The notes under the pieces were generated by a model. It was not told the origin of the DNA. It saw nothing but the letters and a program-made list of their open reading frames with translations, and searched no databases. Below are positions 12,423 to 35,465 of a stretch of 64,000 nt of DNA, one piece after another (the stretch's first letter is position 1; each line of letters starts with the position of its first letter). Source of the stretch: an uncultured Verrucomicrobiae bacterium (GTDB lineage: Bacteria > Verrucomicrobiota > Verrucomicrobiia > Chthoniobacterales > JAFAMB01); the NCBI GenBank assembly GCA_963775805.1, contig CAVZKG010000004.1, forward strand, positions 70,296 to 134,295. Reading direction: 5' to 3'. Both the position numbers and the translations under genes were made by a program.

Positions 12423-12423
12423 T

Positions 12424-15400
12424 TCAGTCGCGGCCTCCGTTAAGAAGCGCATTGAGGGCATCCTCGTCGGAAAGTTGCTCAACGTCGGCCAATACGGTTG
12501 AGACACCTTCCGTCGAAGTTGAACCGCTCACGTCCTTTTTATCGTGAACTGCCGCTTCTACCGTGTCCGACAATGACACTTCCATTTTCTCCGCCAAATG
12601 CCCCGCCAGGGCGTAGATTGTCGGGTAGTTCCAGACCATCGTCGCGGACAGTGTCGTCCCAGTGGTTTGCTCGCATCGATTTTTTAATTCGAAGCCCATG
12701 AGCGAATCGAGCCCAAGCATACCCATAGGCTTTTCGATATCGATTGAGTTCGGATCGAGCTTGAGGACCGCCGCCAACAATTTCTTAAGATGCATTTCCA
12801 AGGCTGCGCGTCGCGCGAAGCCCGAACTAATCGCAAGCAACTCATCGCGCATTTGCTCTTGAAACCGCCGGGCCGGAACTTGCGAACTTCTTTGGACCGA
12901 TTCAGGATGGGCAGCCGCTCCAATATCTGCGAGCAACGGAGGCTCTTCGCCCATCGGGAAGGTTTGACGGAATTTTGCCCAATCCATGCGCATCACTGCC
13001 GCCTGGGTCGCGCCTTGCTGGAGTAGTAAATCCAGAGTCTTGACTCCAAGTGACGGTTGAAAACCTAAAATGCCACGTTGTTCCAGCGCTTTTATTGTGC
13101 GCTCTCCCCCCGGCGTTAATGCCAGTCCGGAGCCGTACCAGCCACCCCAGTTTACTCCGAGTGCATGCCGTTTGTTTGCACGTCGATGATGGACGAATGC
13201 GTCGACGAACGCATTCGCTGCGGCGTAACTGGTCTGCCCGGTTTGACCGAGCAGCGCACCGATAGAGGAGCAGCATACAAAGAACTGCAATGGCTCTTCC
13301 GACAAGCATCGTTCAAGAGCGAGAGTGCCGAGGATTTTGGGCCTGAAAACCGCCTCGAAGCTCTTCGAGTCAAGCTGTGGAACAAGGCGGTCGTCCGCTG
13401 CCGCCGCGGCGTGGACTACCCCTCGGACCGGCAACCAACCTTCGTCCCCGAGTATTTTGATTACCTTCAGAATGTCCTGTTCGTCGGCGATATCCGCAGA
13501 GAAGGTTCGTACTACCGCTCCCTCTGCTTCGATCTCCTGGACGCTCGAGACCCGATTAAACTCCGGGGTGCCGCGGTGAAGATTCTCCCACGTCGCTCGC
13601 TCCGGAAGTGGTGTCCGCCCGACAAGAACGATCTTGCGCGCGCCTTGGGCGGCCAGGTTTTGAGCAATCTTTAACCCCATTCCACCGAGTCCACCAGTGA
13701 TCAGGTAACAGCCGGGAATCGACCAATCGACCTGCATTTGCGTGGCCTCGGTTTTCCTTGGCTGGACAAGACGCGGAACGAATCGGATACCGTCGCGAAT
13801 TGAGGACTGATCTTCCTTATCCGGTTTCGTGATTTGCTCAATTATCGCTTCAACATTGTCGGCAATGGACGCGTCCGGATCCAGATCCAGCGATCCCCCC
13901 CAAATCTCTGGATGTTCGACTGCAAGGACCCGGCCCAAACCCCAGAGCGATGCACCTGACAGTGAGGGCAATCGGGATGGATGGGGAGGTTGCGCACCGT
14001 ATGTCACCAGCCATAAACGTGGACCCGTCGGTTGTAGAGGACTGCCGATGATCGACTGCGCCGCGCGGAGAGCATCCGAGAAAAGAGTGACCACCTGGTC
14101 GTATAGAGGTTCGATCTCACCAGGTTCCGGTTGTTCGTTCGTTCCCAATAGAAAAACCACATGGCGGCACGGCAGCGTGGTTGCGGCCAGAGCTGCATCA
14201 ATTGCCTGGCGAATCCGGTCCGGACGACTTGCATCGATCACAAATTGCCCTTTAGCGATAGTCCCGAATGTTTCTCCGCGATCGAGCCTAACAACCTGGT
14301 TACCGCGTAATTTGAGCGACCGGATTGTGGTCTCGCAGAGTGCTGAACCATCACCGAACACCAGCCACGCGCAGGGCCGGGAATCCGCTTGTCCGGTCTT
14401 CTCAATTTCAACCTGTATTTTCGGATGAGGAGCGGTCTTGGCGACAATCACCGCCTGCTCAAATATGCTTGGCTCATTTTCCGGATTTGCTTCAATTCCG
14501 CCTGCGTCGGAGTACCCGGTCGAGAGCAGAAGTTCCTTCCACTTTTCGATCGATAAAAGCGGATGCGAAGATCGCAGATCGGTATCTTCGAACCGCCACC
14601 ATCCTTCGGTCATGCCAAAAACCAAGTCAATCCAGCGGGTTGGCTTGATTCCCTCCAAAAGGGCTAGTAAACCTCCAGACGCCAAAATCGATTCCGTATT
14701 GGCGAGCGAACGGCGAAGATCCCGTGTAGCGTGCAAGACATTCGACGCAATGATTACGTCAAAATGCCGCTCCGTGATTCCCTGGAGCTTGTATGATTTC
14801 TCGACGTCGAAGAGCAAGTAGCGGACAAATGGATATTCCGAGAATCTTTTGCGGGCGTTCTCGAGGAATAATTTTGAAACGTCCGAGAAGACGTATTCGC
14901 ACGGTACATCCTTTAACAGCGGCAACAAGTGAGCCGTGGTGCCTCCCGTCCCAGCTCCAATTTCGAGCACGCGCAAAACTTTCCCTGGTGGGAGCGTTTC
15001 GACGACTTCTTGCAAGAATTCCCGCACCAGCTGGTTCGGTCCCCGCGCCATCCTCGAGCCTTCGTAAAAGTGCGTCGTTTTTTCGACCGACCCTTCAGGG
15101 AAGAGCAGCTGCAGTGGATCGCACACTCCGCGCAATACCTCAGATAAATGGCCGGCGCAGCGTTCAAATAAATCCAGCTCCGCACGGTACTGGGGATAGC
15201 GATCGTTAAGATCGTGAATCGTCAACGCCGAACGGTCCTGCGGTAATCTGGCGATGACCTCCCACTCGTCTCTGACCGCTCGGGCTTTACCTTCTTCGCA
15301 GAGTATCTGCAGCATCCGAGCCACCAACCGGGTATGTTGAGGGGCAATTCCTAATTTTCTGATCAATTCCTCCGTGGAAATATGATCCCCCGGAGCTGGT

Positions 15401-18400
15401 GCCCATCCCAATTCTTGAAACGTGCGAATCACCAGATTTGCGCTGACTACGTCCAGCGCAGCAATCGTTTCCGTCTCTGCATCTGATTCCGTTGGGTGCT
15501 TTGCCAATTCGGTTCGAAGTCGGTTCTCGCATTGTTCAATATCGGGGAGATAGAGCGGATCCGACCGCCGGAGCATTTGCGCGGGAGAACTCCAAGGTTT
15601 CCATTCGACTCCGAACAGCATCCCTGACGCTATTCGGTCTTCCGACGAGGTCAGCGAATCCGGCGATATCGGATGGAAATGGACGGCTTCAATTTCCGCT
15701 ACGATTCGTCCATTCTCATCGGAAACACGGACATCGCCGCGCAGAATACTAGGCGTGGCGTTCTCCGGAGGAACCAGAACCGCATGGCAAATTAATTGAG
15801 TAGCCGTGCTGCGTAAGGCCCTCAAACGCCGAAAGCCACCGAAGCCCCAAAGCGATTCTTCCGTTTCTCTTTTCCCGGCTGTGTGGATACGAGTTAGAAC
15901 AATGGTTTGCAGGGCGGCATCCAGGAGTACTGGGTGGATCAAATAGTCAGAACGCTCCGAAGCGAGGCGTTCGGGCAACCGAATGCGTGCGATCGTTTCC
16001 GATCTACCCGCGTTTGCTTGCTCAACTACTCGAAAAGCCGGGCCGAATTGTGCACCTCTGGCGGCGAAAAGTTCGTAATAGTCGTTTTCAGAAATGGCAG
16101 CCGCACAGCGACTCAAGACCGCGTCTATTTCAAGTCTCTCCGGACTGTCCAAATCTTGTCGAAGAGGTCCTCTGCGCACGATCAATCGGCCTGTCGCATG
16201 CAGAGCCCAATCGAGTTCTGTCTCTTCGAGTCGTTCAGCGCTGTGCAATTCGAATCCTGCGACTCCATCGACCGACGGTTCCAGTACAACGTGAACGATT
16301 CTTTCGCGGTTCTCCGTCAATATCAACGGCCTGTGCACCACAAAATCGTCCACTTCAGCCGGAGTGGAGGAAAATGCTTCCGTTGCACAGGAGAAAACCA
16401 TTTCGGTCATCAATGGCGCCGGCACGACAATTGCCCCGAACACCCGATGGTCTCGCAAAAACCCAAGCGACGCCGGATGCAGAGACGACTCGTAGATGAA
16501 TCCACGAATGCCAGGCGAACTCAATTTGCGGTGGTTCAAAGAGCGTTGAGCAGATTTCAGCGACGGTATTGAGACAGTTGAGAGCACCGGTGTGGGTGGG
16601 GCTTCGAACCAGTGAGGCGTGCGCTGCCATTGATAAGTCGGGAGTTCCGCGACACGGCCGCCGTCCGGGTACACAGTTGACCAATCGATTTTTGCGCCTG
16701 CCGCGTAAATTCCGCCGAGCGATTCAAACATTTGTTGCCGGTCGGAGCGGGCGTGTCGTAACGACGGGAATACATGAGCTTTGCGCGAGACCGAGGCTGC
16801 ACACTGGAGGATCGCGCTGCACAGGACAGGGTGTGGACTCAATTCAACAAACGCGTTGACGCCCGCATCGAGCATCGCGAAGACGGCATCCGCGAAGTGG
16901 ACGGCCTCTCGGATATTACGCTTCCAATAAGCGGCACCAAAATCTTCGTTCGTTGAAAGGGCGCCGGTGACGGTTGAATAGACTGGAACTCTCGCTTTTC
17001 GCGTTGTCAGACCAGAAACCGAGTCGGTCATCTCTGTCAGAAACGGCTCCATTAGAGGGCTATGAAATGCGTACACTCCCTGCAAAATCTTGCTACGCGC
17101 TCCCTCGGATTTAGCTGCTTCCACGATCTCGTTGATCGCCGTTGCCTCGCCAGAGATAACGATCGAGGAGGGGCCGTTGATTGCCGCGACGGATACTCTT
17201 CCGAAATGCTTTCCTATTAGTCGATCGGCCGCGGATCGATTGATTTCCAGCGCAGCCATCCTGCCGGAATTTTCCGCGCGTTGCATCAGGCGGGCGCGAG
17301 TACAGACTACAAGTACAGCCTCCTCAAACGAGAGAATGCCGCCTAGATAGGCCGCGGCGACCTCTCCAACGCTATGACCGACGATCGCGAAAGGGTTGAT
17401 GCCCCACGACCGCCAGACGGCTGCGAGCCCAATTTGCAACGCGAACAAAGCGGGCTGGGCGAATTCGGTCTTGTGCAGCCGGGATTCCGGTTCGTTGCGA
17501 CGCAATTCGTCCAGTAAATCCCAGGTCGCGTGCCGTCTTACTTCGTCGGCGCACCGGGCGACCTCCATGCGGAACGCTGGGTTTGACGCCATAAGCTCAC
17601 GCCCCATGCCCCACCATTGAGGGCCTTGTCCTGAACAAACCAAAGCGATTTGAGACTGTGCGCCGGAACGTACCGTTCCAACAAATGCGTTCGAAGGGTT
17701 TCCACCCTCCGCGAACTCGCGAAGAGTTGAACATAACGCTTCGCGATGGCCGCCAACGACTGCCATGCGGTGTTCGAGATGCGCGTGACGCGCGGCCGCC
17801 GTGTAAACGAAATCGGCCAAGCTGGTGTCGCGTTTCTCTTCAAGCCAGCGCCGGAAGGAGCGCGCTTGGTCTCTTAGAGCATTCGCTGTATGGCCTGAAA
17901 CTGGCAGAACGTAAAGTTTTTCTGTACGGAGATCAACCGGCGCCTCCTGCCATCGCGGGATCGACTGAGCAGGGAGAGCAACGTTATCTTGGCCATCACG
18001 CTCGACCAATTGCCAATCAATCGGCCAGCCCCGAACATAAAGTTCGCCGGCACTTTTTAAGAGCGACAAGCGTTCGTTCTCGGTGCGGCGGCAAGATCCG
18101 ATAGCAATCCCTTCAGCGTCAAGCGCGCCAAGATTTTGCCGCATCGCACCGACCAGCAACGGATGCGGACTGATCTCAAGGAAGAGTGTGCATCCGTCCC
18201 TTGAGAGGCGCTCCACCACAGATCTGAAGAGCACCGGGCGCCGAACATGTTGTGCCCAGTGTTCCGGTCCTAATTCTCCGCCGGCAACATGGTCACCGGT
18301 AACAGAGGAGACGAATTGCGTCGTCGCTCGCGCCGGATTCAATCCGGTCAAAGAGGCCCTTAAAATCTCGGCTGCCGAGTCCATCTGCGGACTGTGTGCC

Positions 18401-20865
18401 GCCACATCGACGTCGATGAGTGAGCAGGTCAGGCCCTCGTTTTTCCAGGTTGCGACAATCGATTCCAGGCAAGATGCATCCCCGGAAAGCACGCTCGAAC
18501 TAGGACTGTTGAGCCCGGCGACAAACACTTTTCCGGTCAATTCTTGAATACGCGCGGCGACATCCGCTTCAGAAAGTTCCACGACAGCCATCCCACCGCC
18601 TTGCCCAGTCCGCGATTGGGCTCGGCTAGACTCAACAACGACCCGCATCGCATCCTCGACCCCTAGAGCACCGGCTGCGCATGCGGCAGCCCACTCGCCC
18701 AGGCTGTGAGCCCCGACAAAGTCAGGTCGTACACCCCAGGAATTCCAGAGATCGGCGAGAGCCACCTGAAAAGCAAAGAGAGCCGGTTGGACCACTTCCG
18801 TGCGGTTCAAACGAGACTCGTCAGGCGTGGCAAGCAACTCGTCGAATAGCGACCACTCGGCAAATTTGGCAAGCGCATGGTCACATTCAGCAAGTTTTGC
18901 CCGGAACCGGGGCTCGGTCTCGATCAGACTTCGCCCCATTCCAAGCCACTGCGAGCCTTGTGGCGAAAAAATGAATGCCAGTTTCGGTCGGACTGCCGGA
19001 GCGCGCCCTATCGCGATGCGTGGGTGTTGTTCGCCCTTTAGAAATGATTTGAGGAGCGTACATAGTTCCTCCGTTGAGCAGGCAGTAAGCGCGACTCTTT
19101 CGGGTCCCGAGTTGCTGTGCTTCATGGCATTGGCGCAGATTTCCGCCAATTTGTGTTTCGGACCTCCAATAGACAGACCAACTTGCAATTCCTCTGCGAT
19201 CCGCTTTAAAGTGACCGGATCCGCTCCGCTTAACGGCAGCAAATGAATGTCACTGCGCATCCGTTCTTCGACGACAACGTGGCAGTTGGTTCCTCCCCAA
19301 CCAAACGCGCTTACACCTCCGACTGCCGGCTTTGCTGGCTCTGGCCAAGTCTCGAGCTCCGTCACGACGCGAAGGCGTGAACTGGCAAAATCGATGTAGG
19401 GATTGGGGCTGCGATAATTCAGGCTTGGCGGAACTTGTCGGTGATAGACTGAAAGTACGAGTTTAATGAGACCTGCGATTCCTGCCGCGCCCTCAAGATG
19501 GCCGATATTGGTCTTAACGGAGCCGATCAATAATGGCTGACTCGCCGGTCGGTCCTTGCCAAAAACTTCGCCCAGCGCATACGCTTCAATTGGATCGCCA
19601 AGAGGGGTCCCGGTTCCATGCGCCTCGACATAATGAATATCGGTGCCAGCGAGATGCGCGCGTGCAGCGGCTTCTTGCAGAACGGCTTCCTGAGCAAGCG
19701 GATTTGGAGCAGTGAGGCCGTTGCTGGCCCCGTCGTTGTTAACGGCGGTTCCGCGAATCACCGCGTAGATTCGGTCTCCCTCGGCCAGCGCTTGGTTTAA
19801 CGATTTCAGAACAACGAATCCACCTCCTTCGCCGCGCACAAAGCCATTCGCTCCGGCGTCGAATGCAGAGAGTTGGTCGGTCGGAGAAAGGCCACCGAAT
19901 TTCGAAAGTGCGACGGTGGTCTCTGGATCAATAATCATATTCACGCCCCCGGCGATCGCCAACGTGCTATCACCGGCTAACAGGCTTTGACATGCTAGGT
20001 GAACGCTTACCAGAGAGGAAGAACAGGCCGTGTCCAGGGCGATGCTGGGGCCCTGAAATCCCACCGCGTACGAAATTCGATTCGCGACAATGCTGAATGC
20101 TTGTCCGGTTCCTGAATGGATCGTGATCTCCGCACCCGTTTTTCGGGCGATAGTTTCGTAGTCGTGCCAAACAACTCCGACAAACAATCCTGTACGGCTG
20201 CCTCGCAGGGTTTCTGGGTCGGCGCCCGCGTTTTCAAGCGCTTCCCACGTTAGCTCGAGAGCCAAGCGCTGTTGAGGATCCATTTGATCCGCTTCGCGAG
20301 GGGAGATTCCAAAAAAGCCGGGATCGAATTGGTCAATCTGTTCGAGCAGACCAGCTCTCCGCGAATTCATTTTTCCTGGTGAGCCGGGATTCGGATCGTA
20401 CCATGCGTCAATATCCCAACGCTGCTGTGGAATAGGACGAATGGCACAACCTCCCGTTCTCAACAGTTCCCAGAAAGCTCCAGGAGAAGGTGCGCCAGGA
20501 AATCGACACGCAATCCCAACTACGGCAACGTCAAGTTGGCGGTTCGACGCCGAAGAAGAGCGGGTAGTTCGATTGTTCGAACTTGATTTCTCCGTTGTAC
20601 ATACATAATTCGCAAGTGTTTCGACTGTCGGATAGTTCCATACGAATGTTAGTGGAATTTTCCGACCCAGGTATTCGCCCATTCGGTTCAGAAGACCGAC
20701 GGCTTTGATGGATTCAAGCCCCAGGAGACTGAACGGCTCGTTTGTAGGAACCGTTTCGGGCCGGACGCCGAGTGCACGGGCAAGCTCCTCTACCAGCCAG
20801 CCTTTTACGGCCTCCACCTGAGGGCGGTTATTTTCTGATTTTTCGCTGACGGCGCTATCCTGCAT
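12424..20865 (-). CDS. Type I PKS, combined loader + first extension module: ACP-KS-AT-AT-DH-MT-KR-ACP
   Basis: 2813-aa ORF. N-terminal carrier domain: LLGLESIKAVGLL. KS: DTACSSS/EAHGTGT/KTNIGHLE. AT no.1: GAHSLGE, Ser instead of Arg at +25, VAAHS. AT no.2: GHSVGE, Arg +25, YAFHS. DH: HRVFGAIVVP, LLDAALQ. MT: LEIGAGTGGTT...SNVLHATRD. KR: TGGLGGMG, SYAAANAF. ACP: LGLDSLMGFEL. Confidence 0.93.
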   Translation of the reverse strand: MQDSAVSEKSENNRPQVEAVKGWLVEELARALGVRPETVPTNEPFSLLGLESIKAVGLLNRMGEYLGRKIPLTFVWNYPTVETLANYVCTTEKSSSNNRTTRSSSASNRQLDVAVVGIACRFPGAPSPGAFWELLRTGGCAIRPIPQQRWDIDAWYDPNPGSPGKMNSRRAGLLEQIDQFDPGFFGISPREADQMDPQQRLALELTWEALENAGADPETLRGSRTGLFVGVVWHDYETIARKTGAEITIHSGTGQAFSIVANRISYAVGFQGPSIALDTACSSSLVSVHLACQSLLAGDSTLAIAGGVNMIIDPETTVALSKFGGLSPTDQLSAFDAGANGFVRGEGGGFVVLKSLNQALAEGDRIYAVIRGTAVNNDGASNGLTAPNPLAQEAVLQEAAARAHLAGTDIHYVEAHGTGTPLGDPIEAYALGEVFGKDRPASQPLLIGSVKTNIGHLEGAAGIAGLIKLVLSVYHRQVPPSLNYRSPNPYIDFASSRLRVVTELETWPEPAKPAVGGVSAFGWGGTNCHVVVEERMRSDIHLLPLSGADPVTLKRIAEELQVGLSIGGPKHKLAEICANAMKHSNSGPERVALTACSTEELCTLLKSFLKGEQHPRIAIGRAPAVRPKLAFIFSPQGSQWLGMGRSLIETEPRFRAKLAECDHALAKFAEWSLFDELLATPDESRLNRTEVVQPALFAFQVALADLWNSWGVRPDFVGAHSLGEWAAACAAGALGVEDAMRVVVESSRAQSRTGQGGGMAVVELSEADVAARIQELTGKVFVAGLNSPSSSVLSGDASCLESIVATWKNEGLTCSLIDVDVAAHSPQMDSAAEILRASLTGLNPARATTQFVSSVTGDHVAGGELGPEHWAQHVRRPVLFRSVVERLSRDGCTLFLEISPHPLLVGAMRQNLGALDAEGIAIGSCRRTENERLSLLKSAGELYVRGWPIDWQLVERDGQDNVALPAQSIPRWQEAPVDLRTEKLYVLPVSGHTANALRDQARSFRRWLEEKRDTSLADFVYTAAARHAHLEHRMAVVGGHREALCSTLREFAEGGNPSNAFVGTVRSGAQSQIALVCSGQGPQWWGMGRELMASNPAFRMEVARCADEVRRHATWDLLDELRRNEPESRLHKTEFAQPALFALQIGLAAVWRSWGINPFAIVGHSVGEVAAAYLGGILSFEEAVLVVCTRARLMQRAENSGRMAALEINRSAADRLIGKHFGRVSVAAINGPSSIVISGEATAINEIVEAAKSEGARSKILQGVYAFHSPLMEPFLTEMTDSVSGLTTRKARVPVYSTVTGALSTNEDFGAAYWKRNIREAVHFADAVFAMLDAGVNAFVELSPHPVLCSAILQCAASVSRKAHVFPSLRHARSDRQQMFESLGGIYAAGAKIDWSTVYPDGGRVAELPTYQWQRTPHWFEAPPTPVLSTVSIPSLKSAQRSLNHRKLSSPGIRGFIYESSLHPASLGFLRDHRVFGAIVVPAPLMTEMVFSCATEAFSSTPAEVDDFVVHRPLILTENRERIVHVVLEPSVDGVAGFELHSAERLEETELDWALHATGRLIVRRGPLRQDLDSPERLEIDAVLSRCAAAISENDYYELFAARGAQFGPAFRVVEQANAGRSETIARIRLPERLASERSDYLIHPVLLDAALQTIVLTRIHTAGKRETEESLWGFGGFRRLRALRSTATQLICHAVLVPPENATPSILRGDVRVSDENGRIVAEIEAVHFHPISPDSLTSSEDRIASGMLFGVEWKPWSSPAQMLRRSDPLYLPDIEQCENRLRTELAKHPTESDAETETIAALDVVSANLVIRTFQELGWAPAPGDHISTEELIRKLGIAPQHTRLVARMLQILCEEGKARAVRDEWEVIARLPQDRSALTIHDLNDRYPQYRAELDLFERCAGHLSEVLRGVCDPLQLLFPEGSVEKTTHFYEGSRMARGPNQLVREFLQEVVETLPPGKVLRVLEIGAGTGGTTAHLLPLLKDVPCEYVFSDVSKLFLENARKRFSEYPFVRYLLFDVEKSYKLQGITERHFDVIIASNVLHATRDLRRSLANTESILASGGLLALLEGIKPTRWIDLVFGMTEGWWRFEDTDLRSSHPLLSIEKWKELLLSTGYSDAGGIEANPENEPSIFEQAVIVAKTAPHPKIQVEIEKTGQADSRPCAWLVFGDGSALCETTIRSLKLRGNQVVRLDRGETFGTIAKGQFVIDASRPDRIRQAIDAALAATTLPCRHVVFLLGTNEQPEPGEIEPLYDQVVTLFSDALRAAQSIIGSPLQPTGPRLWLVTYGAQPPHPSRLPSLSGASLWGLGRVLAVEHPEIWGGSLDLDPDASIADNVEAIIEQITKPDKEDQSSIRDGIRFVPRLVQPRKTEATQMQVDWSIPGCYLITGGLGGMGLKIAQNLAAQGARKIVLVGRTPLPERATWENLHRGTPEFNRVSSVQEIEAEGAVVRTFSADIADEQDILKVIKILGDEGWLPVRGVVHAAAAADDRLVPQLDSKSFEAVFRPKILGTLALERCLSEEPLQFFVCCSSIGALLGQTGQTSYAAANAFVDAFVHHRRANKRHALGVNWGGWYGSGLALTPGGERTIKALEQRGILGFQPSLGVKTLDLLLQQGATQAAVMRMDWAKFRQTFPMGEEPPLLADIGAAAHPESVQRSSQVPARRFQEQMRDELLAISSGFARRAALEMHLKKLLAAVLKLDPNSIDIEKPMGMLGLDSLMGFELKNRCEQTTGTTLSATMVWNYPTIYALAGHLAEKMEVSLSDTVEAAVHDKKDVSGSTSTEGVSTVLADVEQLSDEDALNALLNGGRD
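14491..15528 (-). other. SAM-dependent methyltransferase domain (between DH and KR) in the 2813-aa PKS
   Basis: VLRVLEIGAGTGGTTAHLLPLL ... YVFSDVS ... DVIIASNVLHATRDL ... GGLLALLEG ... GWWRFEDTDLRSSHPLL. Confidence 0.75.
16711..17652 (-). other. Second (extender, malonyl-type) AT of the tandem AT pair
   Basis: CSGQGPQWWGMG ... GHSVGEVAAAYLGGILSFEEAVLVVCTRARLMQ ... YAFHSPLM. Confidence 0.75.
18061..18984 (-). other. First (loading-type) AT of the tandem AT pair
   Basis: FSPQGSQWLGMG ... GAHSLGEWAAACAAGALGVEDAMRVVVESSRAQS ... VAAHSPQM. Counting from the active Ser, position +25 is Ser, whereas the three active-site-Ser extender ATs and the GHGVG AT-like domain (counting from the Gly at that position) in this window all have Arg there. 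Confidence 0.65.
20596..20823 (-). other. N-terminal loading carrier domain (ACP/PCP-like) of the 2813-aa PKS
   Basis: WLVEELARALGVRPETVPTNEPFSLLGLESIKAVGLLNRMGEYLGRKIPLTFVWNYPTVETLANYV. The Ser is in GLES where GxDS is usual. Confidence 0.7.
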
Positions 20866-20874
20866 GCAAAGCGA

Positions 20875-21693
20875 TTAATATTGCGTCAATGTGCCCTCAA
20901 TCCGGCCCTTCCGAACCATCGCTGCAAAAACAGCCAGACTGAGAGGAAGGAGGATTGCCGCCATCAATCCCAGGGTGACTATCGGTTGGACGATCATACC
21001 TATTGAGTATCCTTTCAAGATTGTCAGCCTGAGCGCATCAAGGGAATAGGTGATTGGAATCAGAAACGAGATTTTTTGAACCCACGCTGGAAGGATGTCG
21101 ATTGGAAAATAAGCGCCCCCAAGCATGGTGCCCATCCCGCCGAGTATCCAGGCAAGCGGATCACCTTTCTTGAGCCACAGAATCGTTGCTGCCGACAACA
21201 CTCCGAATGCAACGAAAGTGAGAAGCGAAAATGCTAGAACCAGGATTGTCGAGAGAATATTCACGTGGCTGAGATTAACACCCATCACAAGCACTCCGGC
21301 GGCGATTATTACCAAAGGTTGCAACGCTCCGGAAATCAAGCCGTACAAAGATGACATCAGCACGATCGTTAGTGAATCGGTCTGGCTGCTCAGCATCGCC
21401 TCCAGGCATCCACTTAGCTGAGCTGCACGAATCGAGTCTGAGAACATCCTGAGCGTCAATTGAAAGTACCGAGCAAATGCAACGCCGATCACCACAAATG
21501 CGAGGTAGTTTCCACCATATCGGGCCGTAAATCGCGAATCTCCGCTGGATACTAATCCGTTAAGAAAGTAGAAAAAGATCAGGACCATCAGCGAGTCGAT
21601 GGCGTTCATTACAAAACTCATTTTGTAACTCGACTCGATCTGGAAATCGCGTCTGATAAAAGCGGCAGCTTTGCGTATCAATAGGGCCATCAT
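20875..21693 (-). CDS. ABC-2 type transporter permease (exporter membrane subunit)
   Basis: 272 aa and strongly hydrophobic, with about 6 predicted TM stretches. The N-terminus MMALLIRKAAAFIRRDFQIESSYKMSF is typical of ABC-2 permeases. Its start overlaps the stop of the ATPase gene (21690-21693). Confidence 0.8.
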   Translation of the reverse strand: MMALLIRKAAAFIRRDFQIESSYKMSFVMNAIDSLMVLIFFYFLNGLVSSGDSRFTARYGGNYLAFVVIGVAFARYFQLTLRMFSDSIRAAQLSGCLEAMLSSQTDSLTIVLMSSLYGLISGALQPLVIIAAGVLVMGVNLSHVNILSTILVLAFSLLTFVAFGVLSAATILWLKKGDPLAWILGGMGTMLGGAYFPIDILPAWVQKISFLIPITYSLDALRLTILKGYSIGMIVQPIVTLGLMAAILLPLSLAVFAAMVRKGRIEGTLTQY

Positions 21694-22499
21694 CGTTTCA
21701 CCGCCACGTTTTGACGATAATAGTCGGAAAGAGAGATCCCTCGCGCATTGACATCCGCAATATGGTCGTAAGCCATTAGCTCCCCTTCATTGATCACCAG
21801 AACTCTGTCGCATAGCTTTATTGCTTCTTCGAGCTGGTGTGTCGCGATCAGGATCGTCTTGCGAGAGCCCTTGTGAAGCCGTTCGTTGATCAACTCGATC
21901 AAGTCTTCGCACGCGACAGGATCGAGTGTCCGGGTAGGCTCATCGAGTATCAGCACTTCGGGCTCTGCGATCAGGCCGCGTGCCAGCGCCAAACGCTGTT
22001 TCATTCCCGACGAATAAGTTGAAACGGGTTTGTCCACAGTTTCTTCGAGTCCCACAAAATGGACTAGCTCTCGAATGCGTTCACTCATGCTCTCTCCGCT
22101 CAAGTTGTCGAGTGCAGCGAAGAATTCGAGGTTCTGCGTTCCTGTTAGTCGCCAAAAAAAACTACGCTCTTCGTTCATAACGAATCCGACTGATCTTCTC
22201 GCCGCAGCGTTATGGCGCAAGGTGTCGTGACCGTTCACCAGGATGTCGCCTTCTGTGGGAAGTAAAAGTCCTCCTACAAGTTTGAGAAGAGTTGTCTTCC
22301 CGGCGCCATTTGGTCCCAACACCGCAACCCGGTCGCCTTTTGCGATTTCGAGGTTGATTGATTTGAGGGCGGTGAAAAGGCGCCTTGCCTTGAACGGAGA
22401 CAATAAGATTTCCCGATAACGTTTAGCGATCGGAAATCGCATCGACACGCTTCGCGCTGAAATCAGACCCTGGGTTGGAACGGCTGAACTATTTGGCAT
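21690..22499 (-). CDS. ABC transporter ATP-binding protein (partner of the ABC-2 permease)
   Basis: Walker A GPNGAGKTT, signature YSSGMKQRLALARGL, Walker B LILDEPT. The ORF track starts at 22673, but that extension runs inside the NRPS TE region. I use Met59 (MPNSSAVPTQ, ATG at 22499), which overlaps the NRPS stop by 11 nt. Confidence 0.85.
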   Translation of the reverse strand: MPNSSAVPTQGLISARSVSMRFPIAKRYREILLSPFKARRLFTALKSINLEIAKGDRVAVLGPNGAGKTTLLKLVGGLLLPTEGDILVNGHDTLRHNAAARRSVGFVMNEERSFFWRLTGTQNLEFFAALDNLSGESMSERIRELVHFVGLEETVDKPVSTYSSGMKQRLALARGLIAEPEVLILDEPTRTLDPVACEDLIELINERLHKGSRKTILIATHQLEEAIKLCDRVLVINEGELMAYDHIADVNARGISLSDYYRQNVAVKR

Positions 22500-25400
22500 G
22501 CAGCGGAGTGTTTTCTCCCTGGACGCTTGCAAGACATTTGAGGAGTCGTTTTGCGATCTCTTCTCCATGCAGATACCGAGTCCAGTGGTCGCCTCGTGTG
22601 ACGTGAACTTCGAGACCACCCTTCGGTACGCCACGCCAGCCCATGTTCTTGTCGAAGCTGTGCTGCTTTTCATTTATTATCAATGCGATACTGCCCGGGT
22701 AGGTCTTAACTCGATTGCGATACATTGTTCGCATATAGTCCATTCTTAGTTTGTATAGGCGGCGAGTGGCCGATACCTCCTCGGTTTTTGTCTCTTCCGC
22801 GCCGAGCTTGCGGCGACGCAGATCTTCTAGGATGGCCGACCGTGAGCTTCCAGTGCTCCGGATAATTTGAGCGAGAACATGAATAATATGCTTTGCCCGA
22901 TTCCATGCATTGTACAAATCAAGCCCCAAGGAGCGAAGCACGGTCGGTCGGTGAGTATCAAAAAGGACGAGCAAGCGGACTTCTTCGCCCTGTTGCATGA
23001 GCTTTTCGGCCATGACTAGCGCTACAACACCGCCGGCGCAGTCACCTCCGAGAATATAAGGACCTTTTGCTTGGACGCCTCGAAGTTCAACCAGGAACTC
23101 TGTCGCTACCTCGTTCGCATCTCGGTACCGATCTGACACTCCATCAAGCCAGCGCGGTTGAAACCCGTAAACGGGCTGATCGAGACCAACATGAGGAATG
23201 AGTCTGGAAAGGACACGGAGCGTATCGTCTGCATCCATGAAGCCGGCTACTAGAAAGAATGGTACCCGTGAGCCCTTCGGCTGAGCTGGGACTAGCCGGT
23301 TCCATCTGCAGATTTCGCCTGCGTGATAGTACCTGTCGGCATAGTCGTCGTATTTGATCGTCTTGGACAGCCCAGCAATTGTTGGCTCGATGAAGATACT
23401 TCTCAAAGGGAGATCTATTTTAAATATCGACTCCAAACGCGCGACAAGGCGCGTCGCTGAAAGCGAGTGCCCCCCAAGTTCGAAGAAATGATCAAAGACT
23501 CCGACCTTCGGAATCTCCAGGATTTCACTCCAAGCGTCGGCCATTATCTGCTCTACCTGGTTGCGGGGAGGTACGTACCCCCCTGTGGAATCCGGCTCGT
23601 TTGATTCTGGAGCAGGCAGCGCGTTTCTGTCGACCTTTGCATTCGGCGTAAGAGGAATGCTGTCCAGAAATACAAAGCCGGAAGGAATCATGTATTCGGG
23701 CAGGACAGATTTGAGGCGATTGCGCAATTCCTCGATCGTCGGACGCTGAGAACTTGCTGAAACGACGTATGCTGTCAAGCGCACGTCGCCTGTGTTCGTT
23801 TTGCGAGCTGCTACTACGCACTCTCGTACTCCTGGGTGCGAAGAAAGTGTCGCCTCAATCTCGCCTAATTCGATACGATAACCTCGGATCTTGACCTGGT
23901 TATCAACACGTCCAAGGCACTCCAGACGTCCGTCCGAAAGATGCCTGCCAAGATCACCTGTCCAATACATACGTGTTCCCGGGCGAAACGGATCCGAAAC
24001 AAATTTTTCGGCGGTTAATTCCGTCCGGTTAAGATATCCGCGGGCGACACCGTCGCCGCCGATCCACAAGTCTCCCACCACTCCGCGCGGCACCGGTTCG
24101 AGATTTTTATCCAGTACGTATATTCGCGTGTTGGCGATCGGTCGCCCGATTGTTACCTCGTTGGATTCAATTTGAGCGATCGCCGACCAGATCGTTGTCT
24201 CCGTTGGGCCGTACATATTCCAGGCCGATTTGCATGCTCCAACCAAGCGGAGTGCCATTTCACGGTCCATGGTTTCACCGCCGCATAAGGCCGTTAACCG
24301 CTGGTTGCCTCCCCAACCTGACTCGAATAATAGGCGCCACGTCGCAGGGGTCGCTTGCATTATGGTCGCTCCCGAGTCTTCAAGAACATGTGATAAAGCG
24401 ACTCCGTCTGTAACCGTCTCTCGGCTCGCCACGTGGATCCGTGCTCCGGTGGTTAAAGGCAAGAATAATTCCAAGGCCGCGATATCGAAAGCCGGCGTCG
24501 TTACCGCGAGGAATATATCTACCTCATTAATTCCCGGCTCCCGGGCCATTGAACACAAAAAATTGGTTAGCGCTTTGTGTTCAATTTCGACTCCTTTGGG
24601 CAGACCCGTTGAACCGGAAGTGTAAATGACGTATGCCCGGTCGGACGACTTTGCGATAGTCGGTATCGGTGCGTTGTCGTGCTGTTCAATCGCGTCCTTG
24701 TCGGCGTCCATGCAGACCTTTGTGAGCGTCGAATTCGAAAATAACGTTTCGAGAAGCCCTTTCCGGGTGATTAGCACTCTTGCTCCGGAGTCCTCGAGCA
24801 TGTATCGCAGACGTTCCGCCGGAAAGGCGGGATCCAATGGCAGGTAGGCGCCACCGGCCTTGAGGACAGCCAAGAATCCGACGACCATCTCTAATCCGCG
24901 CTCGATGCACACGCCGACCAATGACTCCGATCCAACTCCGAGCGATTGGAGATGCCGTGCCAAACGCGTAGAAATGGTGTCCAGCTCTTCATACGTGAGT
25001 CCGACCTTTTCGTATCTAACCGCTTCGGCATTCGGTCTGCGGACGACCTGTTGCCGAATGAGGTCTACAACGGTTCGCTCCTTTGGATAGTCTCGGTCGG
25101 TTTCATTTAGTCCTGCTACCAGTTGCTCCCGCTCGGTTCTTGTGAGGATTGGAATTTGCGATGCATTGGTATCCGGTAAAACCACTACTGCCTGTAGCAG
25201 CGTTTTGTAGTTCTCCGCGAGCTGCGTGACCGTCGAATCTTCAAATAGATCCGGGTTGTATTTTAGAACGCCACCATAGGCCCCGGACTTCTCAATGAGC
25301 TCGATTGACAACTCAAATTGACCTTCTTGTTGTGGAATCCAGAACTGTTCCAGAACCAGACCCGCAAACTCGGTTTGCACGCCGGACTCCCCGTATCCGA

Positions 25401-26670
25401 CGATCTCTTCGAGTCCCGCGATTTCTTTGAACTTTTGGAGAATAAATACGGTTTGGAATACAGGTGTGCGCGAAAAATCACGATTTGGGTGCAGCTTTTC
25501 GACTATTAGCGGGAAAGGATAATTTCCATGACGTATGCCGTCGACGACCGCTTGGCGGACCTGTGCAAGAATTTCCCGGAAGGTTGGGTCATTGTGAAAC
25601 GACCCTAACAGCGGAATCATGTTGATAAAGTCACCAACGATATTGCCGAACTCCGGGCGATCGCGACCGTACGTCGGCGACCCAACAATAACCTCCTGTT
25701 GACCGGTATATCGGTGTAAAAGAATGTGATAGGCTGTCAGCAGAACAACGTATGGAGTTGTATTTTCTGCGGCGGCTAGAACGCGTACCGCCTTGCTGAG
25801 TTCCGCGCCCAGATCGACAGGAACCGATGCACCTATTTCAATTAACGAAGCCTGTCGCGGACGATCGGTTGGCAAGTTGAGAGACGAATGGAGGCCCGAA
25901 AGTTTGGATATCCAATAGTCTTCGTGTTCCTTCCCCTCGGGACTCGAGAGCATTGCTTCCTGCCAACGTGCGTGTTCGAGAATATCGTGCCCGGGACGGG
26001 GCGGCGGCGGCGCAGTTCCGCCCCTTTCTGATGGATAGATTTGACGCAAATCGTCTAATAGCAGGAAGAGTGACCAACCGTCCGCGGCAATGTGGTGGAC
26101 GCTGAAAACTAGCACGTAGTCGTCAACCTCACGCGAAAACAGGTCGACTCGCATGAGCGGACCGTTTTGCAGGTCGAACGGGGCTCGAGAAGCCTCAAGA
26201 ACTTCTTTTCGCAGCGCTGGCAATTCGATACCGGGCCGACTATGAAGTTCGAAATGGACCGGCATATAGCCATGAACCACTTGGTTAAGACCATTCAAAT
26301 CGGCGCGAAATGTAGTGCGTAACGAAGCGTGCCGATCTACCAACGCTTGGAACGAGCGGCGCAAAGCAGGCAGATCAATTGAGGACCGAATCCGAGCTGA
26401 AAAGACCACGTTGTACGCGGCGCTCCCAGGGTTCGCCTGATGCACGAACCAAAGGGCTCGCTGCCCATGGGAGGCCGCTTGAGTGACAGTTTCGCGGGTG
26501 GCGCGCTCGCGCCAGTCGACTAGAATCGTATCTTTTTGCGATGCCAGCTGCGATCGCAAATTCTCGGTGAGGGTCCCTTTTGTCGCTCGATACCGAAGCC
26601 GGCTTCCTTCGCCCCAGACCGTCACCCCTTGTTCGCGAAGGGTATCCATCAATGCGATTTTATCGCTCAC
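22489..26670 (-). CDS. NRPS termination module: TubC-type docking domain - C - A - T - TE
   Basis: Dock: LREQGVTVWGEGSRLRYRATKGTLTENLRSQL. C: VHHIAADGWS. A: YTSGSTGLPKGV, NMYGPTETT, YWTGDLG, GRVDNQVKIRGYRIELGEIE, PNAKVDR. T: FFELGGHSLSATRL. TE: PFFLVAG...GPYILGGDCAGG...LVLFDTH...RGDHW. Confidence 0.95.
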   Translation of the reverse strand: MSDKIALMDTLREQGVTVWGEGSRLRYRATKGTLTENLRSQLASQKDTILVDWRERATRETVTQAASHGQRALWFVHQANPGSAAYNVVFSARIRSSIDLPALRRSFQALVDRHASLRTTFRADLNGLNQVVHGYMPVHFELHSRPGIELPALRKEVLEASRAPFDLQNGPLMRVDLFSREVDDYVLVFSVHHIAADGWSLFLLLDDLRQIYPSERGGTAPPPPRPGHDILEHARWQEAMLSSPEGKEHEDYWISKLSGLHSSLNLPTDRPRQASLIEIGASVPVDLGAELSKAVRVLAAAENTTPYVVLLTAYHILLHRYTGQQEVIVGSPTYGRDRPEFGNIVGDFINMIPLLGSFHNDPTFREILAQVRQAVVDGIRHGNYPFPLIVEKLHPNRDFSRTPVFQTVFILQKFKEIAGLEEIVGYGESGVQTEFAGLVLEQFWIPQQEGQFELSIELIEKSGAYGGVLKYNPDLFEDSTVTQLAENYKTLLQAVVVLPDTNASQIPILTRTEREQLVAGLNETDRDYPKERTVVDLIRQQVVRRPNAEAVRYEKVGLTYEELDTISTRLARHLQSLGVGSESLVGVCIERGLEMVVGFLAVLKAGGAYLPLDPAFPAERLRYMLEDSGARVLITRKGLLETLFSNSTLTKVCMDADKDAIEQHDNAPIPTIAKSSDRAYVIYTSGSTGLPKGVEIEHKALTNFLCSMAREPGINEVDIFLAVTTPAFDIAALELFLPLTTGARIHVASRETVTDGVALSHVLEDSGATIMQATPATWRLLFESGWGGNQRLTALCGGETMDREMALRLVGACKSAWNMYGPTETTIWSAIAQIESNEVTIGRPIANTRIYVLDKNLEPVPRGVVGDLWIGGDGVARGYLNRTELTAEKFVSDPFRPGTRMYWTGDLGRHLSDGRLECLGRVDNQVKIRGYRIELGEIEATLSSHPGVRECVVAARKTNTGDVRLTAYVVSASSQRPTIEELRNRLKSVLPEYMIPSGFVFLDSIPLTPNAKVDRNALPAPESNEPDSTGGYVPPRNQVEQIMADAWSEILEIPKVGVFDHFFELGGHSLSATRLVARLESIFKIDLPLRSIFIEPTIAGLSKTIKYDDYADRYYHAGEICRWNRLVPAQPKGSRVPFFLVAGFMDADDTLRVLSRLIPHVGLDQPVYGFQPRWLDGVSDRYRDANEVATEFLVELRGVQAKGPYILGGDCAGGVVALVMAEKLMQQGEEVRLLVLFDTHRPTVLRSLGLDLYNAWNRAKHIIHVLAQIIRSTGSSRSAILEDLRRRKLGAEETKTEEVSATRRLYKLRMDYMRTMYRNRVKTYPGSIALIINEKQHSFDKNMGWRGVPKGGLEVHVTRGDHWTRYLHGEEIAKRLLKCLASVQGENTPLHAK
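22516..23283 (-). other. Type I thioesterase domain with a Cys nucleophile (GGDCAGG; Cys codon TGC at 23038..23040)
   Basis: Residues ~1130-1385 of the NRPS. The alpha/beta-hydrolase TE pattern is PFFLVAG ... VYGFQ ... GPYILGGDCAGGVVALVMA ... LLVLFDTH ... RGDHW. I read the DNA as gga ggt gac tgc gcc ggc ggt. Confidence 0.8.
23617..25083 (-). other. Adenylation domain, hand-extracted specificity code D-I-L-Q-L-G-M-I-W-K (glycine-type)
   Basis: Aligned by eye to the GrsA-Phe landmarks. FDIAALE gives D235 I236 L239. IMQATPAT gives Q278. ALCGGE gives L299 G301. WNMYGPTETTIW gives M322 I330 W331. PNAKVDR gives K517. Confidence 0.6.
26515..26664 (-). other. TubC-like beta-hairpin docking domain at the NRPS N-terminus
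   Basis: MSDKIALMDTLREQGVTVWGEGSRLRYRATKGTLTENLRSQLASQKDTIL matches the remembered TubC_N pattern (L..L...GV.LW.EG..LRY.AP.G.LT.EL...L...K..IL). Confidence 0.7.
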
Positions 26671-29600
26671 AGCACACCCTCCTCAAATTCGAGAACCGGT
26701 GCATTTGACCCTCTTGACATGTCAGGAGTTTGCATTGTGGCCAGCAGCTCGGTTATCCATTCTGTTAGCTCCGCAGGCGTTGGACCCTGAATGAGCTGCG
26801 CCATTGCGACACTCACACCCAAGTCGACATCGATTTGGTTCTTCAACTCGATCGACATGAGTGAGTCGAAACCCATCGCCGATATTGGCTTTTGGGGTTC
26901 AACCGAGTCAATCGGTACCTTGAGAATTCGGGCTATTACCTGCTTCAGATAATCCTGTACGAGGGTCGAGCGGTTACCGGCGTTCGTGGCCAGGATTCGC
27001 TCGCGGGTCTCGACGTCAGCGCTCTTAGCGGGAGATGTCGAACCTTCCCCAGAAACCAGCAGCGACAGATAAGGGGCGATTGCCATATCGCCGTAGGAGC
27101 GCCGCCACTCCTTCCAATCGATAGGCATGACTCCGACTTGGATATCCCCTTCATCCAGGAATAGTTCCATGGCCTCCAAAGCTTCCTGATTCGACAATGT
27201 GCCGATCCCTTTCGTGGCTCCAGTCCGGCCATGGCGTTTCGATTCCTGTTCAGTCTGAAAACGGGTGGCCATTCCCGCTTGCTCCCAGGTACCCCAGTTC
27301 ACACTCAGCGCCGGGAGACCCATCGCTCGCCGATGGTGAGCAAGCGTATCAAGGAAAACGTTCGCTGCCGAATAACCTCCCATCATTGGCGAACCCAAGA
27401 GCGCTGACGAAGACGAAAATAGAACAAACAGTTCCAAAGGAACAGTTGCCAAGAACCGATGCAAAAGCCATCCTCCGATCATTTTGGGCGCCAAGACATC
27501 TCGTATTTGCTGCGGCGTCTGGTTGCAAAATGGTTCGTACTGCATCACGCCGGCGGCATGAAATACACCTCGTAGCGGCGGTTGACCGCCCAATAAGCAT
27601 TGGTTAACGAGTTCCCGCACCGATTCCTCGTTTCCCATATCGACAATTTTTGTTTGCACGTTTGCGCCCCGTTTCTCCAGTTCGCGAATCGCCGCAATCC
27701 GGGATTCTTCGATCGATCCCCGCTCAAAGTTGTTCCATTGCTCGCGTGAGGGCATTGCCGTCCGTCCTGCCAAAGTCAAATGACGGGCGCCATGAGCGAC
27801 CAGCCAATCGGCGATGACCAGTCCAATTCCACCTAACCCACCCGTGAGCAGATAATTTGCATCCGGCCGGATCGAGATCGGGTCAGACGTTGACCTCATT
27901 TTCGACCGCCGCCCCAAGCGGAGGACGTGCTCCCGTCCGCCGCGAAAAGCAAACTGGTCATCAGCGCTACGTTTCTCTAACCGTGCGGCCAGCATATCGG
28001 CCGCTGCGTCCGGAGTATCACTCGGATCAAGGTCAAGTTGCCCGCCCCAGAAGTCAGAACATTCCATCGCGATGGCGCGACCAAATCCCCAGAGCGGAGA
28101 TTGAAGCAAGGAAATAGGGGAAGGCTTCGAATCTGCAGGTTGCGCACCTGCGGTGATCAACCACAGCTTCGGAGGAACCGTTAGCCGCAGGCGATCGAGC
28201 GATTGCGCGACCCTCAAAACGCTGATCGGTCCGAGTGACTGAGCATCTTGAAGAGCTGCTAGGTCAGCGCGTTCGAGGGTTTGCGCGTCAAGACTCCACA
28301 GATGCACAACACGCTTTAGCTCAGGTGTCAGCTTCCTTGCTTCGGAGAAGATTTGGTCATAATCAGAGGCTTGGTCGCGCCGAATCGTAATGAGTGCTTC
28401 GCCCGAACGGGAGAATTGATCCCCGTAATCCACACACAGGCATGTTGCTCCTCGTCCTCTCAGTCGTGCGCACAGTGCGTCGCCAACCCCTTGACGATCG
28501 CGAAAAATGACCCATGTTCCGGTCGCCGATGCGTCTGGAGCCCGTTCGAGATCCCTGTCACTCGGAATCCATCGAGGTTCGTAAAGCCAGTTCTGCACGT
28601 TTCGGAGCGCCTTCTCTTGTTGTTTCGAGTCCAAGTACCACAGCCGCGCTCCGATCGTCTCTGTGATGAGGTTTCCGGCGAGGTCGAACACTTTGACGTC
28701 GCCGACTAGGGTGTTATCCGCAGTAGAGTCCCTGCCGCGAATTTTTGCATAAGCGTAGAATCTTCTGCCCTCAGGCCGCCGATATAGTCGGACTTCGTCG
28801 ATACCCGCACCGACAAAGGCACCACCAAGAGCATCGTTCGATTTTTCAAGAGGAATCGTTGCGGTGAGGATGTGCCCCAAACTATCCGCAAGAGCCGGGT
28901 GAAAAACATAACTCGAGGTCTCTTGTTCGATGCCGATTGGGATTGTCACCTCGCTTAACGCTTCTCCGTTTCCCTGCCAGATCCGAGTGACGCCTTGAAA
29001 GCAGGGTCCCCACTGGTTGCCCCGATCGCTTTGCAATCGATAGAACTCGCTCCCATCCAAGGAACGGGTCAAGTTCCTTTGAAGTGCTACTCGTTCGAGT
29101 TCGTTCCATTTCTCATCCGGAATCCGGATCTCTCCGGTTCTCAGCGCACCCGTGGCGTGCAGTGTCCAATTCGTATTTCGATTTTTTCTTCGGCTGTGGA
29201 TCTGGAACTCAATGATTCCTGAACCCTGTTGCGCGAGGCGAGTTTGGATCTCAAATGTTCGACCCGACTTAAGTTGCAGTGGTCTCGCTATGTCGATCCG
29301 TGTCAAAACCACTGGCAATTCCGAAATCGCTTCGACGGCGGCAGCAATGGCCATTTCGACATACGCAGTCGCAGGGACGACGGATACGCCTTGTACGCGG
29401 TGGTCGTCGATCCAGGAGACTTTTTCCAGACTGATCTCGCCAAACCAGATATGCTCTCCTGGATGGAATGCCAGAGGTACATGCGTTCCAAGTAAGGGAT
29501 GACCGTCAGTCCGTTTGAGGTCGGGGTCAGGGCTCGAGACGGGAATCCAGTGACGCTTCCGTTGAAATTGATAGTTCGGTAGCGTAACGCTTTTGCGACG

Positions 29601-32421: not shown

Positions 32422-32611
32422 ACGGTTAATCGACATTGGGCGCAATTTATTTAGCTAAATTGTCTTGCAGAACGCGAATAAATTGCAAAATGCAGACCTG
32501 CCCCAAAAAAAGCAAGTGTCTCCTCCAGCGTTTTAGTGCGTTTGTAGAGTTCGTTTGTCTAGAGCGCCCAGGTTTTCTATAACACGGAACAGCCAAGAGG
32601 AAATCGTTTGG

Positions 32612-35318: not shown

Positions 35319-35398
35319 TAGTAACTCGGTAAGATACAATCGACCGAACGCAAGCCGGGAACAGATTTCGGCCCGATACGTTGGCGATTCGGAAAATT

Positions 35399-35416
35399 GG
35401 TCCAAAAATTTGGACC
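35399..35416. promoter_or_regulatory. Palindrome GGTCCAAA-aa-TTTGGACC upstream of the LLM oxidoreductase gene
   Basis: Read directly from the sequence. It lies about 80 nt upstream of the ATG at 35318, on the minus-strand promoter side. Function is unknown. Confidence 0.2.
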
Positions 35417-35465
35417 GGTTCGGCAAAAATTGCCGTCGGGTTTACTGCAAACTTATTCCTGAGCG

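Follow-up and report, generated by a model that had tools for sequence, protein, structure and literature searches.

A natural cysteine-type thioesterase at the end of a predicted polyketide-glycine assembly line in an uncultured Verrucomicrobiae bacterium

Introduction

How does a nonribosomal peptide synthetase (NRPS) let go of its product when the thioesterase (TE) domain at its end uses a cysteine in the place of the usual catalytic serine? The question is raised by a stretch of 64,000 nucleotides from an uncultured Verrucomicrobiae bacterium (positions 70,296 to 134,295 of contig CAVZKG010000004.1, assembly GCA_963775805.1), here called the window, in which an NRPS gene ends in a type I TE with the nucleophile elbow GGDCAGG. 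The original prediction, made from the sequence letters, proposed a triad of Cys1211, Asp1238 and His1362, named the ring-forming TEs ObiF (obafluorin beta-lactone) and SulM (sulfazecin beta-lactam) as the characterised cysteine cases, and suggested that its release chemistry may be new. By employing Pfam, alignments to solved structures, a structure model and searches for relatives in genomes and metagenomes, we found that the cysteine is not an error and that it belongs to a broad clade of cysteine-type domains. The best explanation as a whole, and one that we regard as probable, is a terminal TE with a Cys-His-Asp triad, a thioester intermediate and a cyclising release. Of its parts, the thioester intermediate and the terminal glycine are inferred, and the cyclising outcome most of all.

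A cysteine at the nucleophile elbow

The TE domain lies directly C-terminal to the peptidyl carrier protein (PCP) domain and runs through to the stop codon of the NRPS gene (coordinates of all features are given in Table 1). The only Pfam family reported for it was PF00975 (Thioesterase), at residues 1183-1376 with an E-value of 3e-13, above the cut-off. The span and the motifs of the domain stood as originally given, the landmarks other than the three catalytic motifs being PFFLVAG (1137-1143), VYGFQ (1167-1171) and GPYILGG (1203-1209). The elbow reads G-D-Cys-A-G and not G-x-Ser-x-G, with Asp confirmed as the residue before the cysteine, yet it sits at the proper elbow site. When the domain was compared with all PDB chains by phmmer, Cys1211 fell on the catalytic serine of three solved TEs, i.e. 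SkyXY-TE (7crn, elbow GWSLGS), PksA TE (3ils, GWSSGG) and NocB TE (6ojc, GWSFGG), and Asp1238, in FDT, fell on the acid position of the same three.

An AlphaFold2 model was built from an alignment of 35 diverse relatives and reached a predicted local distance difference test (pLDDT) of 91.5 and a predicted template modelling score (pTM) of 0.89, an earlier model from 10 sequences having been discarded at a pLDDT of 57.8. In the domain numbering of this model, Cys91, Asp118 and His242 correspond to Cys1211, Asp1238 and His1362. A strand (85-90), Cys91 and a helix (93-106) form a classical nucleophile elbow in the model, Asp118 comes right after strand 111-117, and His242 follows strand 233-238. 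A lid of three helices is inserted into the alpha/beta-hydrolase core at 124-197, after the acid-bearing strand. Foldseek against the PDB placed the model with many type I TEs at a probability of 1.00, the top matches all being of this kind (SkyXY-TE, Pks13 TE, NocB TE, AB3403, EntF and the fatty acid synthase TE). The columns of Asp118 and His242 are invariant in the alignment of close relatives, and the histidine is also conserved across the wider clade described below.

The claim of a type I TE with a cysteine nucleophile was thus borne out by Pfam, the PDB alignments and the model, and the putative triad by the alignment, Foldseek and the positions in the AlphaFold2 model. The original prediction had also raised the case of a serine-bearing elbow lying elsewhere in the domain. 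Hidden Markov model (HMM) and structural alignments gave no such elbow, and no serine was seen in or near the cysteine-bearing one in the alignments to solved TEs or in the AlphaFold2 model. The missing serine elbow makes the domain a cysteine-type member of the type I TE fold family, and not a non-member. It is very probably a functional release TE with a Cys-His-Asp triad in canonical geometry.

The cysteine is conserved among relatives

A single base change turns the TGC codon of Cys1211 into the serine codons TCC or AGC, so a sequencing or assembly error for serine, or a decayed and inactive remnant of a TE, had to be weighed. The homologue search returned 19 proteins at 45-71% identity, with the cysteine conserved; among the relatives at 51-71% identity, from soil MAGs of Verrucomicrobiota and Acidobacteriota, it does not vary at all. 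A genome scan, with one genome per species, identified ten close loci in soil metagenome-assembled genomes (MAGs) of Verrucomicrobiae, Chthoniobacterales and Acidobacteriota, and the cysteine is present in all of those whose sequence spans the elbow (9/9). Among the relatives it is encoded by TGC in 10 cases and by TGT in 4, and the use of both synonymous codons is the pattern expected under selection on the amino acid.

The same 1393-residue gene was also called on a contig of the Logan assembly of run ERR11523669. Over 20,819 bases, this assembly and the window disagree at three, all outside the NRPS gene, and the cysteine codon is identical in both; the assembly may share reads with the window, and is therefore weaker evidence than the conservation of the cysteine. 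The three differences, at 28276, 29136 and 29274, all lie in the neighboring polyketide synthase (PKS) gene PKS_A and may be strain variation or consensus differences.

Decay is also opposed by the complete triad, the conserved fold and the state of the upstream domains. The adenylation (A) domain, whose Pfam parts are AMP-binding (539-880) and AMP-binding_C (937-1012), has the motifs SGSTGLPKG and GRVDNQVKIRG, and with their motifs intact the condensation (C), A and PCP domains look functional. Together with the identical codon in the second assembly of the run and the cysteine in all close MAG relatives, under both codons, this makes an error or an inactive remnant highly improbable, and we conclude from the sequences that the cysteine at 1211 is real.

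A large clade of cysteine-type thioesterases

To see the domain among its wider relatives, a family profile was searched against 1.84 billion representative proteins (50% identity clusters), which gave 31,270 matches at E<=1e-3 and 515 at E<=1e-30. In the best 150 proteins, the nucleophile column held cysteine in 140 out of 197 domain hits and serine in 28, with a few Asp or Gly. As the profile was built from cysteine forms and only these 150 proteins were considered, the counts describe the nearest relatives and are a lower bound, not a census. Frequent elbows among them were GGECIGG, AGNCVGG, GGYCFGG, GGHCVGG and GGDCAGG, and across the wider clade the residue preceding the cysteine is D, E, N, H, Y or F.

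In a neighbor-joining tree of 148 near-complete domains, the window TE was nested in a clade of 99 members, all with cysteine, while serine forms were found on other branches. The clade thus comprises at least 99 clusters at 50% identity and is spread over Verrucomicrobiota, Acidobacteriota, myxobacteria, actinobacteria and proteobacteria. Cysteine types are rare among known TEs, as originally held, at about 2% (PMC13288461). The suggestion that the release chemistry may be new was, on the other hand, overstated, given an all-cysteine clade of this size. Ten clade members that were looked up all came from metagenomes and had no informative names, NCBIfam had no dedicated family for the TE domain, its models for Pks13 and EntF matching weakly and in part, and a literature search for the elbow motifs of the clade returned nothing relevant.

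The code of the last A domain before the clade TEs varies. Glycine is the commonest reading, but Val-like, Thr and Ser codes and the unassigned code DPRHFGFQAK also occur, and 12 of the cysteine TEs have no preceding A domain and stand at PKS ends. It is conceivable, though in our view unlikely, that the clade as a whole is a large, old and uncharacterised lineage with an ancestral cysteine, carrying out a release reaction that serine TEs do not. Candidate reactions would then be the capture of weak or unusual nucleophiles, intermolecular amide formation and a thiol-to-thiol hand-over, and uncultured soil phyla would be the source of a structurally new class of products.

Two architectures among the relatives deviate from a single C-terminal TE. 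Tandem TE-like domains occur in P0066, P0067, P0151, P0155, P0044 and P0056, in which one copy has Cys and the other Asp or Gly (elbows GGKDIGG, LGLDMGG and GGIGFGG); these latter copies may be pseudo-enzymes or perform a different chemistry. P0017, a protein of 469 residues (30 member sequences, 5 contigs), is made up of the N-terminal half of a cysteine TE, including the elbow, and an aldo/keto reductase, and is either a true fusion or a recurrent truncation or frameshift.

The assembly line and the predicted substrate

The NRPS is surrounded by PKS genes, here named PKS_A and PKS_C to PKS_F, and by docking logic we take it to be the last module of a PKS/NRPS line with acyltransferase (AT) domains in cis. 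N-terminal docking helices of the same kind are found in PKS_A, PKS_D, PKS_E and PKS_F, and the short C-terminal tail of PKS_A is of a kind that fits the TubC_N dock with which the NRPS begins. No docking helix precedes the carrier domain that opens PKS_C, which would place PKS_C at the start of the line. Read from this docking pattern, the line runs C-D-E-F...-A-NRPS(TE), and the order of the genes is not colinear with the order of assembly. The gene order PKS_A, NRPS-TE, PKS_C recurs in the related MAG loci L001, L002 and L009.

Glycine had been predicted as the last residue, and the A-domain code DILQLGMIWK, which we take to be a glycine signature on the basis of published codes, agrees with this. 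The identical code is found in L001, L002, L007 and L009. In the penultimate module, the dehydratase (DH) domain of PKS_A retains both the HxxxGxxxxP and the DxxxH motif. Most likely, the substrate of the TE is accordingly an N-(2-enoyl-polyketide)-glycyl thioester.

The ketoreductase (KR) domain of PKS_A (residues 1481-1680) has no LDD motif (HAAGVMQYEP), whereas that of PKS_D does. Next to an apparently active DH, this could presumably mean a cis double bond beside the glycine. PKS_C has a mixed loading and first-extension module with two AT domains. Outside the present genome, which has Verrucomicrobiota MAGs as its nearest relatives, this layout is typical of PKSs from myxobacteria.

Release of the product

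In the favored mechanism, the PCP would deliver the N-(2-enoyl-polyketide)-glycyl thioester to the TE, where His1362, oriented by Asp1238, would deprotonate Cys1211. The cysteine would then take the chain from the pantetheine thiol in a near-thermoneutral transthioesterification, giving an acyl-S-enzyme that is resolved not by water but by a nucleophile within the chain, so that a macrolactone or macrolactam is formed. The product would finally be exported by the adjacent ABC-2 transporter. Macrocyclisation was ranked as the most likely outcome because all characterised natural cysteine TEs are cyclases. Cys-to-Ser mutants of ObiF, BulbE and MacB-TE lose cyclisation and only acylate or hydrolyse (PMC6668435, PMC11536411, PMC11792885, PMC13288461), and, compared with an oxoester, an acyl thioester should be attacked more readily by amines and weak nucleophiles but no more readily by water (reasoning of PMC11536411 and PMC6668435). 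By analogy with these enzymes, release by macrocyclisation is a tentative first choice, somewhat short of an even chance.

Several points weigh against this choice. No ring-closing hydroxyl or amine was identified in the modules of the window, which give enoyl, saturated and beta-keto units and not free hydroxyls. The five characterised cysteine TEs are a small and biased sample, picked for cyclic products. Lastly, the varied last residues in the clade imply that the cysteine is not tied to one type of substrate or chemistry.

The same module output bears on a plain hydrolase, in which water would attack the acyl-S-enzyme and a linear N-(polyketide-acyl)glycine acid would be released and exported. 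Glycine, as read from the A code, has no side-chain nucleophile, and no free hydroxyl or amine is obvious among the enoyl, alkyl and beta-keto units that the modules of the window would make. A cysteine also permits hydrolysis, since water attacks a thioester about as fast as an oxoester (PMC11536411). However, no characterised natural cysteine TE is a dedicated hydrolase, and in several of them it is the serine variant that hydrolyses (PMC11536411, PMC11792885, PMC13288461, PMC6668435). The strict retention of cysteine across the 99-member clade, moreover, suggests a benefit that serine cannot give. Hydrolysis is therefore an unlikely outcome, albeit one of some weight.

Transfer of the chain to an external amine or thiol, or to a carrier protein, e.g. 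the ACP_L domain of the next PKS gene, would make the TE an acyl-transferase. Thiol-to-thiol transfer by way of a cysteine is energy-neutral (PMC6668435), thioesters are strongly favored over oxoesters in aminolysis (PMC11536411), and the TE gene immediately precedes the gene with ACP_L at its start, both here and in L001, L002 and L009. The docking domains speak for a different order, though. The ketosynthase (KS) of PKS_A is situated behind a docking helix of the D/E/F type and so needs an upstream PKS partner, whereas PKS_C, which lacks such a helix, brings a loading AT of its own. The order C...A-B, where B is the NRPS, is thereby far more economical than A-B-C. Among the relatives, no candidate gene for supplying an amine is conserved beside the TE gene, and transfer to an acceptor outside the chain appears improbable.

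Macrocyclisation thus stays ahead of hydrolysis, and hydrolysis ahead of intermolecular transfer; the view that the release chemistry is not predictable in detail still holds.

A tetramic-acid (Dieckmann) release was considered and rejected, as the DH and KR of PKS_A are apparently active and leave no beta-keto group before the glycine. A luciferase-like monooxygenase gene at 34332..35426 was considered as a trans partner, the idea being alpha-hydroxylation of the glycine and formation of a terminal amide, as in MtaG. It was rejected because none of the relatives has a homologue of it less than 10 kb from the TE.

Features of the window

Table 1. Features of the assembly line and its surroundings in the 64,000-nucleotide window. 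Residue numbers refer to the NRPS; ACP, acyl carrier protein; cMT, C-methyltransferase; ER, enoylreductase.
Feature	Position	Strand	Basis
Terminal NRPS gene, 1393 residues, TubC_N dock-C-A-PCP-TE	22489..26670	minus	ORF (open reading frame), translation, Pfam
TubC_N docking domain	residues 7-50		Pfam
C domain, residues 65-518, motif HHIAADG	25117..26478	minus	Pfam and motif
A domain, residues 539-1012, code DILQLGMIWK	23635..25056	minus	Pfam
PCP domain, PP-binding PF00550	residues 1044-1104		Pfam
Ser1069 codon in GGHS, phosphopantetheine attachment site of the PCP feeding the TE	23464..23466	minus	PF00550 and motif
Type I TE domain, residues ~1130-1385, three-helix lid ~1244-1317	22516..23283	minus	PF00975, AlphaFold2, Foldseek
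Cys1211 codon TGC, predicted nucleophile in GGDCAGG (1208-1214)	23038..23040	minus	alignment, model, conservation
Asp1238 codon, predicted triad acid in LVLFDTH (1234-1240)	22957..22959	minus	invariant column D118, alignment, model
His1362 codon, predicted triad base in GDHW (1360-1363)	22585..22587	minus	invariant column H242, model, clade
PKS_A, penultimate module, KS-AT-DH-KR-ACP	26667..32300	minus	Pfam; 4-nt overlap with NRPS start
PKS_C, loading and module 1, ACP_L-KS-AT_L-AT-DH-cMT-KR-ACP	12424..20865	minus	Pfam; no N-terminal docking helix
PKS_D, module 2, KS-AT-DH-ER-KR-ACP	5736..12506	minus	Pfam
PKS_E, module 3, KS-AT-cMT-ACP	1319..5743	minus	Pfam; start confirmed by exact look-up
PKS_F, 5' part of a further PKS (docking helix and KS), runs off the window	1..1287	minus	translation
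ABC (ATP-binding cassette) transporter ATPase	21690..22442	minus	Pfam, gene call on Logan contig
ABC-2 type permease, probably exporter partner of the ABC ATPase	20875..21693	minus	Pfam
Sfp-type phosphopantetheinyl transferase	32555..33367	plus	Pfam

In the ORF list, the ABC ATPase (21690..22673, minus strand) and the 3' end of the TE share 185 nt, which is a start-codon artefact; the gene is called from the ATG at 22442, past the TE stop, and there is no true overlap. Homologues of the phosphopantetheinyl transferase adjoin the TE gene in the related loci L005, L006, L007 and L011, and orthologues of the ABC-2 permease do so in L003, L004, L005 and L010. Here the ABC-2 pair separates the TE gene from PKS_C and shares their strand, whereas L003, L004, L005 and L010 have it on the opposite strand and L001, L002 and L009 lack it at that spot.

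The genes for the luciferase-like monooxygenase, a DUF5069 protein and a phosphodiesterase, which lie farther upstream, are not conserved near the TE in relatives and were consequently placed outside the cluster. Two other genes are likewise unrelated to it, namely one for a protein of 1182 residues whose sole Pfam match is one PATR repeat (49157..52705, plus strand) and one for an nSTAND1 NTPase of 989 residues with a long coiled-coil tail (60732..63701, minus strand).

Comparison with known thioesterases

ObiF and SulM had been put forward as the characterised cysteine TEs, a list that was incomplete, as the TEs of BulbE, polymyxin and MacB have been characterised as well. These three perform macrolactamisation, so the link between cysteine and strained rings is not a general one. 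With ObiF and SulM the window TE shares the cysteine nucleophile, the type I TE fold and the location at the C-terminus of an NRPS. In those two enzymes, the aspartate has moved to a later strand ('position II', RifR-like) and glycine occupies the canonical site (PMC6668435, PMC11298585), SulM TE has a Gln-Cys-Asn motif, and the last residue carries a beta-hydroxy or beta-amino group (PMC6668435, PMC11298585). Here, by contrast, the aspartate is canonical (LVLFDTH), the motif is Asp-Cys-Ala and the last residue is predicted to be glycine. Neither ObiF1 (6n8e) nor SulM TE was among the phmmer matches against the PDB at E<=1, nor among the best 60 of 69 profile matches (E<=10) or the Foldseek top 50. 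The window TE is thus not their relative, and the differing features and absent matches point to an independent origin of its cysteine. A TE that closes a four-membered, strained beta-lactone or beta-lactam ring would have only the cysteine nucleophile in common with the present one; the canonical Asp, the Asp-Cys-Ala motif, the missing matches by sequence, profile and fold, and a predicted glycine without beta-hydroxyl or beta-amine all oppose it. This reading is most improbable and close to refuted.

The closest solved structure is SkyXY-TE (7crn/7dxo), at 2e-14 by phmmer, 5e-42 by profile and 1e-16 by Foldseek. It shares the landmarks PxF...G, YGLQxRGL, GPYxLxG-x-Nu-x-G and LLxxxD with the window TE, but has serine (GWSLG), acts on a peptide as a bifunctional epimerase/cyclase and is only ~23% identical.

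Closer parallels in the catalytic residues are found among the macrolactam-forming TEs, which were compared by published description or numbering. BulbE TE (Cys961/Asp988/His1097), which forms an N-acylindole macrolactam (PMC11536411, PMC11792885), is likewise a natural type I TE with a Cys-Asp-His triad that stands at the C-terminal end of an NRPS, and its Asp follows the Cys by 27 residues (961/988, against 1211/1238 here). Pks13 TE and NocB TE, reported as the structures nearest to it (PMC11792885), are also near the top of the matches here. BulbE TE differs in its 'second lid' insertion and its substrate, a ureido-hexapeptide closed via a Trp indole nitrogen, as opposed to a polyketide-Gly chain. 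The spacing of 27 residues is also that of MacB-TE (Cys89/Asp116/His218, against Cys91/Asp118/His242 here), whose serine variant acylates but cannot cyclise (PMC13288461). For the polymyxin TE, a Cys-to-Ser change is quoted as costing 60-fold activity (Galea 2017, cited in PMC11792885). The chemistry of both is an ordinary, non-strained macrolactamisation by a Cys-Asp-His triad. Unlike the window TE, they belong to Paenibacillus lipopeptide NRPSs and use the side-chain amine of 2,4-diaminobutyrate (Dab) in ring closure, and MacB-TE is reported among serine-type cyclases (PMC13288461), whereas the window TE belongs to a large all-cysteine clade. Serine-to-cysteine versions of Pik TE (S148C) and McyC TE are quoted as having improved cyclisation and a wider scope of nucleophiles (cited in PMC11792885, PMC6668435); these are laboratory variants of serine enzymes and not natural cysteine lineages.

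Outside the assembly-line enzymes, an elbow of the form G-x-C-x-G-G and a natural Cys-His-Asp triad are known from the dienelactone hydrolase family of alpha/beta-hydrolases, which act on a small-molecule lactone and on no assembly line. Their elbow resembles the GGYCFGG and GGYCLSG of the clade, but the family is a different one, as Pfam gives only PF00975 here.

In the enzymes studied so far, a natural cysteine in a releasing TE marks a ring closure that the serine version cannot do, which makes cysteine-TE domains useful as flags in genome mining and as biocatalysts. Natural cysteine-type release TEs are already a known type of enzyme, and the window TE is a new example and not a new kind; the known TE mechanism as such is unchanged by it. 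What is new is the occurrence of such a domain on a polyketide-glycine line instead of a peptide line, its source in soil Verrucomicrobiota-like bacteria, from which almost no natural products have been characterised, and its membership in a broad and apparently unstudied all-cysteine clade rather than a one-off substitution. Working out the chemistry of this clade would help explain why some TE lineages have fixed cysteine over serine.

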